From a virus: a DNA stretch of 64,000 nucleotides. Under the pieces are notes generated by a model. It did no database searches. It saw nothing but the letters and a program-made list of their open reading frames with translations, and had not been told where the DNA came from. This document shows positions 24,496 through 42,641 of the stretch, one piece after another. The position numbers and the translations under genes are program-made. How positions within the stretch are numbered: position 1 is the stretch's first letter; each line of letters starts with the position of its first letter. Where the stretch lies: IMG/VR virus record IMGVR_UViG_3300036861_001052, positions 1 to 64,000 of that record, one strand, 5' to 3'.

Positions 24496-25216
24496 CGCCG
24501 ACGGCGGGAGGAATGCGCGAGCCAGCCTGGCCGTTACCGACAGCGAAAAAGTCGTTCGGAAAAGACGGCGACGCCGTGAACGCGATCGCCGGCACGGCCG
24601 AAAACTGCACGTTCGTGTTGGGGTCCGTGTTGCCGAGCGTCATGTTCCAGTAGATCTCGACGACGTTGCCCGGCACGGCATTCGGTAAGACCACCTGAAG
24701 AGGCGCCGGATCGGGACTCGCGTCACGCGGAAACGGCTCGCTCGAGGCCGCCTGCACCTCGAAGCTCACCGTAGGCTGGTCCCAGCCGGTCTGGACGAGG
24801 CACGGCGCCTCTCCGTCGCCGCCGGCAACGGTGCCCGTGACGACCATCCCCATGAACTCCGTCCCCGAGCTCGATCCGGCGATCTGCGTGTCCGAAAACA
24901 CGTCGCTCACAGCCGGGCTTGCGGCGAGCCGAGCAATCAGCAGGGCTTCGGACTCGCTCGCGAGAAAGCACGTGACCACGGGCGGCTCCGACTGAAAGCC
25001 TCCGGTCGTGTCGGCGAGAAGGCCCGCGTCTATTTCGACGACGAAGCTCGGTCCCTGTCCGCCGCCCGCGAGCGTGAGACCCACGACGACGTAGCCGTCC
25101 GGCAGAGCGCCGATGGCGTCGTTCACGCGGAGGGTGAGATCATCCGGAAGCGAGCTCTCGACGATGCGCGTGATGAGCGACGACGCCGCCGAGACCGCGA
25201 CTGATCCGTACTTCAT
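24496..25216 (-). pseudogene. N-terminal part of the spike-family virion gene (restored product 320 aa)
   Basis: MKYGSV...LTLAGGG.GPSFVV...QIAGSSSGTEFMGM shared domain; interrupted at the TSD. Confidence 0.8.
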
Positions 25217-25224
25217 GGGCTCGC

Positions 25225-26073
25225 TCAGGCCGAAGCGCGGAGAGAAGCCGAGAGCACAGAGCCGGCAGCCGAAGTGATGCGGAGACCGAGCTTCGTCGAC
25301 GCGATCACCTGAGGCTCGAGGACGACGAAGCCCAGGACCGACACGTTGTCGAACTCGCCGGCAGCGACGTGACCCTTGGTCGACGCGACCACGCTCGGCG
25401 TCCCGAGCGGATCGGTCACGATCTCGGCAGTGAAATCTCCATCCGCCGTGAGGCCCACGGTGATGCTCGCTTCAATCTCAGCGAAGATCGCGCTCGTGCC
25501 CGTGTAGAGGATCTCTTGCGGAGAGGCCAGCGTGAACCGCGTGCCCATACTGAGCGCGTCGAACGCCAGGATGGTCTCTCCCGCACCGAGCGCCTGGAGC
25601 GTGGTCGCGACGGCGAGGAGTCGAACGTCATTGCCGCCGAGCGGCACGGACGACGCCCCGAATACGGTGAGGCCCATCACGCGCTGGCCCTTGGCGGCGC
25701 CGGCGACCTGCTCGTCCACCACCCCGAATGGCACCAGGCCTCCCGCCGGCGGCGGCACGCCCGCGGCGGTCTTCGCGCGCGCGAGCGCTTCCGGGTCGCT
25801 CCCGAGGTAGCACCGCACCAAGGTGCCCGAGATGCCGTTGATCGCTCCGATGAGCCCGCCGTTCACGTCGTCGAGAGGCGCCGTCTCGAGGAGCACGGTG
25901 AAGCTGTGGCCGTCTCCCGACCCAGCCAGAGAGATCGAGCTAGTGACCCTCGAGTTACCGTCCACCGCGAGGAGGGCGGCGTTCACGAGGGCTTCGAGCT
26001 CTTCTGGATCTGCGGCCTCGAGAAAAAAGGTTTCCGTGTCCGCGTTGCCACCAACTGTTCCAAATTGCGTCAT
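25225..26073 (-). CDS. spike-family virion protein (shared N-domain plus beta-rich head)
   Basis: SLAGSGDGHSFTV...QVAGAAKGQRVMGL. Confidence 0.75.
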   Translation of the reverse strand: MTQFGTVGGNADTETFFLEAADPEELEALVNAALLAVDGNSRVTSSISLAGSGDGHSFTVLLETAPLDDVNGGLIGAINGISGTLVRCYLGSDPEALARAKTAAGVPPPAGGLVPFGVVDEQVAGAAKGQRVMGLTVFGASSVPLGGNDVRLLAVATTLQALGAGETILAFDALSMGTRFTLASPQEILYTGTSAIFAEIEASITVGLTADGDFTAEIVTDPLGTPSVVASTKGHVAAGEFDNVSVLGFVVLEPQVIASTKLGLRITSAAGSVLSASLRASA

Positions 26074-39333: not shown

Positions 39334-41163
39334 TCATGCCGCGAACGCCGGGACCTTCAACTGGGTCCCGCCGATGTTGATATCCAAAAACCGGTCCACC
39401 GTTGCCGGCACGGCAGCCCCAGCGCCCGCGTTCGCGGTCGTGCTCGTGCCGTTCAGGCGAAGATTGATGCCGTTGAAGCGCCAGGCCGGTAGGCCTCCAG
39501 TCGAGTACTGAATATAGCCGTTCACGGCGTCTGCAGTCGGGTTCGTCTGAGCGTTGGCGACATAGATGATGCCGTCGCCCGTATTCGCCGGAAGCTCCGT
39601 CGTCGACACGCCCGAGAGCTTGACGAGCGAAAGCACTCGCCTGTCGAGCGCGACCTCGGTGGCCTCGACCATTGCCAGCGCTCCGGCCGAAGTATCGTCG
39701 ACATTCAAGCTCATCCTGACACCGCCCATGAGCCCGTTTCCGTCGGGGCCGCCACCAGATAGGAGGAGAATGCCGCCGTCCCCGTCGGCCCCTCCCGCGG
39801 TAACCGACTGCGCGTGTATCCAGAGCCGCTGCGCGGCAGGCCCGAGGCTCGCCTGTTGAATGATGTTCGGGTTTGCGACGGTCCGTATGAACGACAGCTC
39901 CGCCGGCGTAAACTCCGACCTGGTCGAGTTTATCGTGAGCCGCGCCGTTCCGGTGATGTCGACCTGGAATGTCGTCACACAGCGGAGCTGAAGTGTCGGC
40001 GTATGCACGTCGTCGCCGATCTGAAGGCTGTTGGTCGCGGCATCGGCGACGAAGCCCTGCACGTCGAGCGTGTTCGTCGCGTTCCGGTAATAGAGGATCC
40101 AGCCCTTCGTGAGCCTGATCGTTCCGGTGCTTGCGACCGGAGCGGCGAGGCCTCCGCTGCCGTGAATCGCCAGCACCTCTCCGACCTCGAGGGCGTTCGC
40201 AACCTGCACGTTGTAGGTGCCGCTCGGAAAAATCGTCAGCCGATCGGTCGGCGGCGAGCTCGAGGACGCCCGGAAGATGATCTTCTGAGGAACGCTTCCC
40301 GCGGCGACGGCACCGGACACCTCGAATGAAATCTCCGAGCTCGCGACATAGTTCGCGCCGTCGAATCCGGCGGACACGACTCTCGCGAGGCTATCGCCAT
40401 TGGCGACCGTCGTTTGCGCGACGCGCGTGCCCCGGCTCTTCATCCCGAGGAAACGCGCTGCCGCGGTGTCCGCCGAGTGCTGCGCGGCAATGATTCCGCG
40501 CACGGTCGCAGACCCCGTCTGGACGGAAACGACGCTGCCTGCGGCTTCGCCGTTCGTGACGGCGCTGCCGGCGTAGTAGCTCCCGGTCGTGAAGAGATTC
40601 TCGGCCTGGAAGTTCGTGGACCACGTCGGGACGCCGCCGATCGTGATGATGGCCTGGCCATTCGTGCCGCTTGGCGTGATGCCGATCTGGAGCTGTTCGT
40701 TCGCGCCGGGATTGAGCACGGTCGTCGTGATGAGCGAGCCCTCGGCGACCTTCGGATCTAGATAATTAGGCGTCGTGTCGGCCGCCGTCACGGCGACCAG
40801 GTTCGACGCGATGCCCGTCGGGCCCGTAGATCCCGTGGGGCCAGTCGGACCGGTAGCGCCCGTCGGTCCCGTGGGGCCAGTCGGGCCGTCCGTTGGCCCC
40901 GTGGGCCCGGTCGCGCCCGTGTTCGCGGCGCCGCCCGGAGTTCCCGTGGGGCCGCTCGGCCCGGTCGGCCCCGTCGCGCCTGTTGCGCCCGTGTTCGTGG
41001 CGGCTCCGCTCTGGCCCGTGGGGCCCGTACTGCCGCTCGGCCCCGTCGCGCCCGTCTGTCCCGTCGCTCCGGTCGGACCCGTCCCCGCCGTCCCGCCGCC
41101 GAAACCGGGCGGGACACGCGCGGTGCCGCGCCCAGATGTTCCGGTGCGATCTCGGATGGTCAT
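39334..41163 (-). CDS. collagen-containing fibre protein lacking the shared N-domain
   Basis: GPTGATG stalk, then phage-fibre-like segments (KSRGT...V.NGD.L, ..RLTI). Confidence 0.8.
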
Positions 41164-41171
41164 GTCATCGG

Positions 41172-42641
41172 TTAGACAGTCGTCTCAGCCACGTAGAGGC
41201 TACCGTGCTCGTTGTTCGGAGCAGTGACGGGCCGGATCTGTATCGTTCGAAGCGCCGACGTCACTCTCCACTGTACGACGACCGTGTGAGCTCCCGCGCC
41301 GACGCCGCTCTGTCGCCACACGATCGCAGCCGACTCCGGCTGATCGGTGGCCGGCAGAAACACCGCAGCGCCGGCGACCGGCGTTCCGTCGATGACGAGC
41401 CGGAAGTCTCCCGCGAATGCTCCGAGCACCGATGAGGGCGACGCCGTGAAGCTCACGAAGAGGAAAGATCCGATGGTCGTCGTGATGGGTGCGCTCAAGA
41501 GATCGGTGAAGACGGTGCTGTTCGTGTTGGTGTCAGCGTCGACAGAATCGAACTGACTCTGCACGAACGTCGCTCCGGATCCCGTCGGACCCGTCACCGT
41601 GCTTGCGGCGCCCGTTGGACCCGTGACGCCCGTTGGCCCCGTCTGACCCGTGGGGCCCGTGACTCCCGTCGCGCCGGTTGGGCCCGTGGCTCCCGTTGGA
41701 CCCGTCGCGCCCGTTGGACCCGTCGCGCCCGTTGAACCCGTGACGCCCGTTACGCCCGTAGGTCCCGTTGCGCCAGTCGGTCCCGTCGCGCCCGTCGGGC
41801 CTGTCACCGTCGAGGCAGCTCCGGTTGCGCCCGTCGGTCCGGTTGGACCCGTAGATCCGGTTGGACCCGTGACGGTAGAAGCAGCGCCGGCTGCACCCGT
41901 CGCTCCCGTGGGGCCTGTCGGACCAGTAACACCCGTCGGTCCCGTGACCGTACTCGCTGCGCCGTCCACTCCTGTTGGGCCCGTCGCTCCCGTCGGACCC
42001 GTAACTCCAGTCGGTCCCGTCGCTCCCGTGGGGCCTGTCGGTCCCGTGCGACCCGTCGGGCCGGTAGGACCCGTGGCTCCCGTTGGACCCGTCGCGCCCG
42101 TCGGCCCGGTAACGCCCGTCGGGCCCGTCGTTCCCGTGGGGCCAGTCGCGCCCGTGTTCGCGGCGGCGCCGTCGACGCCCGTCGGACCCGTGGGGCCCGT
42201 TGCGCCGGTCGGACCCGTCACGCCCGTAGGGCCAGTGGGTCCCGCGATCGTCGGCGTGCCCATGACGAGCATGCCCATGAAGAGCTGACCCGCGCTCGAT
42301 CCGGCCATCTGCGAATCGGCCACGTTGCCGCTCGCCGGCACGACGGCGTCGTGCGCGACGAGAAGCTCCTCCGGGCCGGCTGCGGAGTAACAGAGGACAG
42401 TCGGCGCCGTCGAAAAACCACCGTCCACGAGATCGGTTTTGAGGCCTGCCTCGATCGTCACCGTGAATGGATTGCCGTCGCCACCGCCCGCAAGGGAAAT
42501 GTCGATGACGGCGTAGGTCCCCGGGATGGAGGCGAGAGCGGCGTTCGCGAGGGACTGGAGATCAGCTGCGATCGAGCTTTCTACGACCTTCGTAAGGAGC
42601 GACGCATCGGAATTGAGCGCAACGGTGCCGTACCTACTCAT
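41172..42641 (-). CDS. collagen-like fibre, spike family
   Basis: Shared N-domain, long GXT stalk, beta-sandwich head ([11 protein letters not shown]). Confidence 0.85.

Follow-up and report, generated by a model that had tools for sequence, protein, structure and literature searches.

Ten paralogous genes of an uncultured 138-kb bacterial virus share an N-terminal domain of ~130 residues (the N-domain) and are proposed here to encode modular virion-surface proteins. Seven of them lie in the first 64,000 nucleotides of IMG/VR virus record IMGVR_UViG_3300036861_001052 (the window, 64 kb of one 138,414-bp contig), and three lie beyond it. The reading we favour, at slightly better than even, is that these proteins are trimeric, modular surface fibres on a shared anchor, carried by a probably tailless, membrane-containing virion of an undescribed and widespread clade. 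An earlier sequence-only reading of the window had proposed a vertex system of a large tailless membrane phage, in which the N-domain would be a pentameric single jelly roll homologous to the PRD1 penton P31 and spike P5. Its modular display system, with one N-terminal module and different heads, is borne out by the present analysis, and a large tailless membrane phage is still the best available reading, but the PRD1 homology fails on fold and the penton role is not supported.

The seven gene starts named by that reading all coincide with starts of minus-strand open reading frames (ORFs), with ATG at 25216, 26073, 27079, 35873, 38933 and 42641 and TTG at 26528, and the translations carry the motifs it had quoted. 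One N-terminal domain is present in all seven products; it is obvious in six and recognised in the 26528 gene only by profile-profile comparison. A hidden Markov model (HMM) of the six obvious window copies and 28 metagenomic homologues was run on a six-frame translation of the whole genome. The six copies match this model partly by construction (E-values in Table 1), and three copies absent from the model were also found by it, all outside the window. The 26528 gene reached merely 9.7e-4 in this search; hhalign of this gene and two orthologues against the domain alignment gave a probability of 93.4% (E 2.5e-7, 113 columns, both halves of the domain), and sequence comparison thus identifies it as a real, divergent member. 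The earlier count of seven is correct for the window, but the HMM and hhalign together bring the genome total to ten.

The family extends well beyond this genome. Two related complete virus genomes used for comparison (136,226 bp and 140,124 bp) hold six and seven N-domain copies, respectively, and a single 122,730-bp contig of a third, more distant relative holds six, three of them ~4-5 kb downstream of the most conserved gene of the clade. The family is therefore multi-copy in four of the four examined genomes with the conserved module described below (this genome, the two complete relatives and the 122,730-bp contig). Among 1.84 billion proteins, N-domain homologues comprise 344 cluster representatives at E<=1e-3, 196 at <=1e-10 and 52 at <=1e-30. 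In 149 of the best 150 of the 344 representatives (proteins of 124-860 aa) the match begins at or before residue 31, the exception being N-terminally truncated. A set of 5.8 billion proteins yielded 29 longer homologues, all metagenomic. The N-domain has no match in Pfam or the PHROGs, library matches to the fibre proteins being confined to their collagen part, and tblastn against 50,697 phage records gave no match.

What follows the N-domain differs from copy to copy. As had been described, two of the window copies consist of the domain only, two carry a head directly behind it, and three carry a collagen stalk and a head. Stalks are present in five of the ten paralogues genome-wide and comprise 25-163 G-X-Y triplets (163 and 61 in the two stalked copies outside the window), followed by heads of 127-222 aa. 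Counting runs of at least four, six proteins contain 400 triplets, of which 167 are GPT and 296 have Thr at the Y position, and the longest uninterrupted runs reach up to 22 triplets. Pfam Collagen (PF01391) exceeds its cut-off in 4 of 69 window proteins (best E 1.2e-26), and the NCBIfam model for the Scl2/SclB collagen-like adhesin was matched at 1.8e-06. By their sequence, the stalks are of the BclA collagen type, rich in G-P-T and G-X-T. Eight C-terminal heads and six other proteins show no mutual BLASTP similarity at E<0.1, consistent with the claim that different heads are displayed.

The AlphaFold2 model of the N-domain, based on 36 sequences, is of high confidence (predicted local distance difference test, pLDDT, 92.4; predicted template-modelling score, pTM, 0.86). 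It places strands at residues 15-22, 43-52 and 59-67 and a helix at 25-37 in the first half, and strands at 80-86, 106-113 and 120-126 and a helix at 89-99 in the second. The domain is accordingly modelled as a new alpha/beta fold in which a beta-alpha-beta-beta unit occurs twice in tandem. The P31 domain of PRD1 is an all-beta single jelly roll, and this had been the expectation for the N-domain; the two helices of the model contradict it, and no PRD1 protein is listed in the sequence or fold searches with the domain. Foldseek against the PDB returned nothing at E<=1e-3, and VIA-align against 48,161 representative chains returned nothing at Z>=5, the best match (Z 4.9) being an unrelated methyltransferase domain. 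A PDB profile search with the fibre profile found BclA alone (1wck, E 4.9e-05), via the collagen part.

Co-folding of three N-domain copies gave an ipSAE of 0.88 (runs 0.88, 0.89, 0.87) versus 0.00 for the best of three controls, with at least 87% contact agreement across runs and partner pLDDT of at least 87. The modelled interface is head-to-tail, with residues 1-21 and 47-73 of one copy packed against 88-133 of the next. Among the proteins used for calibration, 20 of 30 solved as same-chain pairs and 1 of 23 solved as single chains reached the mark; this calibration was made on two copies with the tool's own alignments and holds roughly for three copies with a custom alignment. The searches turned up no solved complex resembling this one, which makes it unlikely that the model reproduced a known structure. 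A trimeric N-domain also fits the collagen triple helix, which begins two to five residues behind it. Three copies, the sole oligomer state co-folded, pass the controls, and the pentameric penton role is not supported.

How would such proteins be held on a particle? We propose that the N-domain assembles head-to-tail as a trimer and that this trimer would be the common plug fixing each protein to the virion. The rationale for an attachment role is that the domain is always N-terminal, that a trimeric collagen stalk follows it directly, and that the genes lie beside a conserved structural module. In five members a G-X-Thr collagen triple helix of 25-163 triplets would then project an unrelated C-terminal head, and the headless and stalkless members would probably occupy the same sites on the particle. 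The fibres may stand on an icosahedral or similar shell over a lipid membrane, which is the weakest step of the proposal.

The argument for that shell comes from the stretch best conserved relative to the two related genomes, at 79-102 kb on the plus strand, which is closed by the two N-domain fibre genes at 102-106 kb. The abundance of membrane proteins that had been remarked on for the window is found genome-wide: a C-terminal transmembrane helix is present in 22 of the 188 ORFs called, and 13 of these 22 are among the 26 ORFs of the module, where they end in a hydrophobic helix and a few basic residues. Thirteen module proteins scanned singly gave no PHROG match at E<=0.01. One module product (88816..91272, 818 aa) is 40% Arg+Lys (147 R, 46 K) and 3% Asp+Glu over residues 1-480, followed by a hydrophobic segment and three 'GEYF' repeats. 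The same 'GEYF' motif occurs four times in the protein 98835..99350.

The most conserved gene of the module shares 92% identity with its orthologues in both relatives and 94% with its best metagenomic homologue, and its product has 613 homologue clusters at E<=1e-3. The gene is split, with the first 12 codons near 91.44 kb and the rest from ~92,261. The ~790-nt insert between them contains a LAGLIDADG-type ORF (91566..92195) that the relatives lack. Rfam matches the insert weakly to a group I intron (18.4 bits, E 0.072), short of the gathering score, and the insert probably represents a self-splicing intron that encodes a homing endonuclease. The fold of the exon-2 product (92261..93028), as a candidate structural protein, was checked for capsid class. 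Its model (pLDDT 81.9) is a single beta-sandwich of 255-267 aa. Foldseek found nothing at E<=1e-3, and the best VIA-align match is the capsid protein of Sulfolobus polyhedral virus 1 (SPV1; 6oj0, Z 5.5, root-mean-square deviation (rmsd) 3.9, 127 residues aligned). Further jelly-roll matches are a totivirus-like protrusion, 4-1BB ligand, an Orf virus D13-like scaffold, the FLiP capsid protein (Z 4.7) and calicivirus/picornavirus-like coats, with TNF-like proteins at Z 5.1-5.2. The PRD1 P5 knob (1yq5/1yq8) and PRD1/PR772 P3 score Z 4.4-4.5 (Foldseek E 1.6-1.8). Because no match reaches Z 8, this comparison fixes the fold class and nothing more. The neighbouring product 93140..94132 has 583 homologue clusters and combines a coiled-coil N-terminus with a beta/loop-rich remainder. 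PDB profile searches with the two conserved proteins gave nothing below E 0.01 and only coiled coils for the N-terminus of 93140..94132; in the Protein Atlas, 93140..94132 matched unnamed viral clusters only, and 64629..66419 had no usable match. A duplicated capsid-protein pair was considered for 92261..93028 and 93140..94132 but is not supported by sequence, as hhalign finds no relation between them. Taken together, the module of tail-anchored ORFans, the protein with 40% Arg+Lys and the very conserved jelly-roll-class protein favour a shell over a membrane.

Could the virus nevertheless be a tailed phage? Family scans covered 69 window and 75 other proteins against Pfam and PHROGs (the 75 also against NCBIfam), and 40 larger, best-conserved ORF products were additionally scanned one by one. 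No terminase, portal or tape measure, as had been noted from the window, and no capsid or tail-tube family appears in the family results shown for the 144 proteins, of which the PHROG summaries cover the best 25 of 97 and the best 25 of 50 families, or in the 40 single scans. In six-frame searches of the genome, PF03237, PF03354 and PF05065 gave 0 matches at E<=1, and PF04860 and PF04466 gave 0 matches at E<=10. PF03237 (Terminase_6N) likewise has no match in the two related complete genomes or on the 122,730-bp contig of the distant relative. TerL is normally the easiest phage gene to detect. Given that terminase, portal, HK97 capsid and tail genes go undetected, the virus is probably not a tailed phage. 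Membership of the Varidnaviria, which had been suggested by calling the virion Varidnaviria-like, is not borne out either. FtsK/HerA (PF01580) and A32 (PF04665) gave only matches of P-loop length, at 14.8 and 10.8 bits, in DnaB and the preceding ORF, and no double jelly-roll capsid was identified; for this reason the term is kept as an analogy and not as a statement of membership.

An alternative hypothesis, which we regard as less likely but as a serious rival and the best of the other explanations, is that this is a tailed phage whose structural genes lie beyond profile detection, so that the N-domain would be a trimeric capsid-decoration or tail/baseplate adaptor and the fibres would sit on the head or on a side tail. 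A number of observations weigh against our own reading, most of them by pointing this way. The absence of terminase and portal rests on sequence profiles, limited as stated above, and no packaging ATPase of any kind was found in the genome searches. The placement of the N-domain proteins on the virion is read from genes and models. The fibre proteins match PHROG 'tail fiber' families, in the collagen part only, from residue ~98 onward. The jelly-roll-class assignment of 92261..93028 is a weak one that depends on a model, and the same list of matches holds TNF-like ligands and the phage cement proteins 7dou and 7eel. The coiled-coil start of 93140..94132 resembles HK97 delta-domain proteins. 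Finally, the best meaningful rows for the N-domain in a Foldseek search of predicted viral structures (BFVD) are proteins of T1-like coliphages, namely JK_26P of Jk06 (prob 1.00, TMq 0.48, rmsd 6.3 A, E 1e-2), K7PMK4 of Rogue1 and a 'collagen-like protein' of BECP10, with prob 0.57-1.00, TMq 0.47-0.48 and rmsd 4.9-6.5 A over about 131-133 columns. JK_26P has the same order of parts, a tandem beta-alpha-beta-beta N-domain, a short collagen run and a beta head, and its gene sits between those of the head protease and the major head protein, a setting that fits capsid decoration on an HK97 head equally well. An AAA ATPase 43% identical to Corndog gp96 is also in keeping with a tailed phage.

These likenesses have to be set against the lack of any TerL, portal, HK97 capsid, tail tube or tape measure in the genome searches and of Terminase_6N in both complete relatives. 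JK_26P is a single-copy gene in the head module of a tailed siphophage, without profile-level similarity to the N-domain: hhalign gives a probability of 0.07 and therefore no sequence relation. A propensity scan, a crude method that recovered the helices of two modelled proteins, shows no long helix in residues 75-330 of 93140..94132, which argues weakly against an HK97-type protein there. Moreover, half of the conserved module consists of tail-anchored membrane proteins, and we know of no tailed-phage module of this kind. No function for JK_26P was found in the literature searched, including passages of PMC11447400.

A second rival takes the comparison with PRD1 at face value. In PRD1, the short P31 and the N-terminus of the longer spike P5 share one domain, and the rest of P5 forms a collagen-like or Gly-rich shaft that ends in a trimeric knob. 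On a strict version of this model, the domain-only paralogues would be pentameric, P31-homologous pentons and the longer ones P5-like spikes of a double jelly-roll, FtsK-packaged Varidnaviria virion. The order of N-domain, shaft and head, the occurrence of domain-only and extended paralogues side by side and the abundance of membrane proteins all resemble PRD1, itself a virus with an internal membrane and without a tail, and the conserved sandwich protein has the P5 knob and P3 among its weak fold matches. Here, however, the N-domain is modelled as an alpha/beta trimer, the co-fold of three copies clears the controls, PRD1 proteins are absent from the lists of its sequence and fold matches, and there are ten paralogues versus two, which are many for twelve vertices. 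Stalks are as long as 163 triplets, and the genome has about nine times the size of that of PRD1. FtsK/HerA or A32 appear only at the P-loop level, and the candidate capsid protein, with 255-267 aa, forms one sandwich where this model calls for a double one. We consider the strict PRD1 model improbable. Least probable of all is that the proteins are made in infection or lysogeny to coat or alter the host surface or to form a matrix, like BclA or Scl, an idea in line with the BclA-like G-X-Thr repeats and adjacent transferases, the Scl2/SclB match and the tolerance of one copy for an insertion, but opposed by a folded domain that starts at residues 1-5 with no signal peptide or anchor motif visible, by the multi-copy family in all four module-bearing genomes examined and by the two fibre genes that close the conserved structural module.

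The preferred reading of trimeric fibres on a membrane-containing particle can be extended to a bolder one, which we put forward tentatively, as possible rather than probable. The virus may represent a widespread, undescribed lineage of bacterial viruses with large genomes (about 110-140 kb), neither tailed nor recognisable as Varidnaviria. In such a virus, the DNA would be condensed by the membrane-anchored protein with 40% Arg+Lys and enclosed by a membrane, which would contain at least a dozen tail-anchored proteins, and a single-jelly-roll shell would lie outside this membrane. No terminase or FtsK-type motor would be used, and the surface would bear up to ten kinds of glycosylated collagen fibre, attached as a nap via the new trimeric anchor fold. 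In SPV1 (Portogloboviridae), a membrane lies beneath the jelly-roll shell and a very basic protein condenses the DNA, while a packaging ATPase is not known, a particle design that would fit both the gene content and the absences seen here. It is also the best structural match of the most conserved protein of the clade, at no more than Z 5.5. SPV1 differs in being archaeal, with a 20-kb genome and no collagen fibres, and the resemblance is a lead rather than a sign of membership. By analogy, and with the same tentativeness since it belongs to this joint reading, the lineage would be a bacterial counterpart of the design principles of SPV1 and of mimivirus fibrils. A search of open full text, judged by listings and abstracts and with supplements and subscription journals outside its reach, turned up no account of such viruses and none of the domain.

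The closest parallels for the stalks themselves are found on spores. BclA and BclA3 of the Bacillus and Clostridioides exosporium likewise combine a trimeric GPT/GXT stalk with a distinct C-terminal head, N-terminal fixing to a surface and neighbouring glycosyltransferases. The present proteins differ in being viral, in having a folded 130-aa anchor of another family, in occurring as many paralogues with unrelated heads, and in that their glycosylation is proposed from gene arrangement. According to PMC7157674, an adjacent glycosyltransferase attaches O-glycans to the Thr residues of the GPT repeats in BclA3. In the window, methyltransferase- and glycosyltransferase-like ORFs lie between the fibre genes, and two glycosyltransferase genes flank the cluster (PHROG beta-1,4-glycosyltransferase 8.9e-24, galactosyl transferase 1.8e-28); two further glycosyltransferase genes follow the second fibre cluster at 108.8-113.2 kb. 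Judging from this arrangement, the Thr-rich stalks are probably O-glycosylated by the neighbouring glycosyl- and methyltransferases. Among tailed phages, SPP1 gp12 and phi29 gp8.5 are trimeric capsid-bound fibres, gp12 being collagen-like, which PMC7602432 describes as thought to help adhesion and not stability. Unlike the present family, they are single genes of phages with HK97 capsids and have no comparable N-domain.

Should the fibres function in this way, a virus could display many interchangeable, sugar-coated heads with a single small trimeric plug, a compact route to breadth of host range. The N-domain itself, for which Pfam, the PHROGs and the PDB offer no counterpart, appears to be a new fold. 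Public metagenomes contain about 600 homologue clusters for each of the two hallmark proteins of the clade, with contigs of up to about 136 kb. Because no gene used to recognise and classify tailed or tailless DNA phages is detectable, a large, abundant group of bacterial viruses may by default be counted among the tailed phages and yet build a different kind of particle.

Table 1. N-domain paralogues and neighbouring features of the 138,414-bp contig (HMM, E-value in the N-domain search).
Feature	Coordinates	Strand	Basis and remarks
Disrupted paralogue, 5' part: N-domain (aa 1-~132) and start of head	24497..25216	-	HMM 4.1e-53; homologue alignment
Paralogue: N-domain and 142-aa head, without collagen	25225..26073	-	HMM 8.5e-39; orthologues in two relatives 51% / 48% identical
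Divergent domain-only paralogue, 152 aa	26070..26528	-	hhalign 93.4%; HMM 9.7e-4
Domain-only paralogue, 178 aa with insertions	26543..27079	-	HMM 1.5e-24; orthologues 65% / 60% identical
Fibre: N-domain, 25 G-X-Y triplets, 127-aa head	34836..35873	-	HMM 1.3e-62; Pfam Collagen 3.8e-07; N-domain used for models
Fibre: N-domain, 60 G-X-Y triplets, 222-aa head	37251..38933	-	HMM 1.6e-63; translation; triplet count
Fibre: N-domain, 66 G-X-Y triplets, 143-aa head	41172..42641	-	HMM 2.4e-52; translation; triplet count
N-domain paralogue, 197 aa	67401..67994	+	HMM 1.7e-11
N-domain paralogue, 918-921 aa	102162..104924	+	HMM 1.7e-49
N-domain paralogue, 488-492 aa	104979..106454	+	HMM 8.5e-58
Probable 3' remainder of the 25216 gene	20465..20782	-	homologue residues 242-297
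Inserted DNA, ~3.8 kb, ends approximate	20783..24496		frame plot, translations; no counterpart in two related genomes
DDE/SWIM transposase ORF	22748..24160	+	within insert
Small ORF	24164..24442	+	within insert
Endolysin (peptidoglycan-binding and amidase)	28209..29207	-	PHROG endolysin 6.4e-38; directly upstream of four-gene paralogue cluster
Methyltransferase-like ORF between fibre genes	35919..36551	-	PHROG methyltransferase 2.2e-05
Glycosyltransferase-like ORF between fibre genes	36511..37251	-	phrog_1574 3.1e-10; glycosyltransferase 0.0061
Collagen-like protein without N-domain: 28-aa leader, 25 triplets, 490-aa C-terminal part	39334..41163	-	triplet count; Pfam Collagen
ORF for a conserved beta-rich protein, immediately 5' of the 42641 fibre gene	42638..43669	-	stop/start overlap; no PHROG match
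Two glycosyltransferase genes flanking the fibre cluster (712 aa; 469 aa with methyltransferase part)	43978..47468	+	PHROG

The gene starting at 25216 had been taken to stop at 24496; there is no stop at that position, and the frame stays open to 21098. The coding signal of this frame ends at ~24450-24500, and third-position G+C changes frame near 24450. A 309-aa homologue aligns with its residues 3-218 to 25213-24548 and with residues 242-297 to 20680-20501 (41% identity, E 9.7e-5). As the homologue aligns on both sides, the gene is split by ~3.8 kb of foreign DNA, for which terminal inverted repeats or a target duplication were looked for and none found. Pfam DDE_Tnp_1 (5.1e-21) and SWIM (1.5e-4) are present among the window proteins and were assigned by eye to the transposase ORF within the insert. 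This transposase has no plasmid match and no match in four metagenome-assembled genomes that hold a homologue of the conserved protein; it was matched in only 4 of 301 Planctomycetota genomes, at <=48% identity.

The ORF directly upstream of the 42641 fibre gene likely starts at an internal Met, which would give ~282 aa. Its product is 62% identical in both relatives, where, as read from coordinates, the match also adjoins an N-domain match, and it is a candidate docking partner.

The IMG/VR record carries direct terminal repeats and has a CheckV completeness of 100. The first 30 bases of the contig are found again 127 nt before its end (1-127 / 138288-138414), which indicates a circular assembly or a short terminal repeat; we read the recurrence as an overlap left by assembly, the genome being circular or circularly permuted. 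The G+C content is 65%, and no tRNA genes are present in the genome. The recognisable genes are those of replication and accessory functions, with DnaB, RNase H, a nucleotide kinase, an endolysin, SLT, a GDSL esterase and several transferases. A conjugative plasmid was considered and rejected, as neither a relaxase nor VirB4 nor a coupling-protein family is among the Pfam results shown and the endolysin and other phage-type genes are present.

Amidase_2 and PG_binding_1 are among the Pfam families of the window proteins, and the peptidoglycan hydrolases that the virus encodes indicate a bacterial host with a cell wall. Bins with relatives carry mixed labels (Pirellulales, two; Pseudomonadota, one; Pseudomonadales, one), and several enzymes look actinobacterial, namely the Corndog-like ATPase, RNase AS and MshA-like transferases. 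The stretch 14834-16350 encodes two enzymes that may serve entry or exit, an SLT transglycosylase with a C-terminal transmembrane helix and a GDSL/SGNH esterase, each with counterparts in the relatives at 54-79% identity.

The AAA ATPase (127041..129365; phrog_8638, E 8e-158; 43% identity to gp96 of Mycobacterium phage Corndog) and its neighbour (phrog_11021) are common to cluster-O mycobacteriophages. A 1,279-aa recombinase-like protein (115849..119688), 59-63% identical in both relatives, has a tyrosine-recombinase region limited to residues ~230-530. One protein encoded in the 64-138 kb part of the genome matches the Pfam Acb2/Tad1 hairpin domain (E 8.8e-05) and is a possible anti-CBASS/Thoeris sponge.

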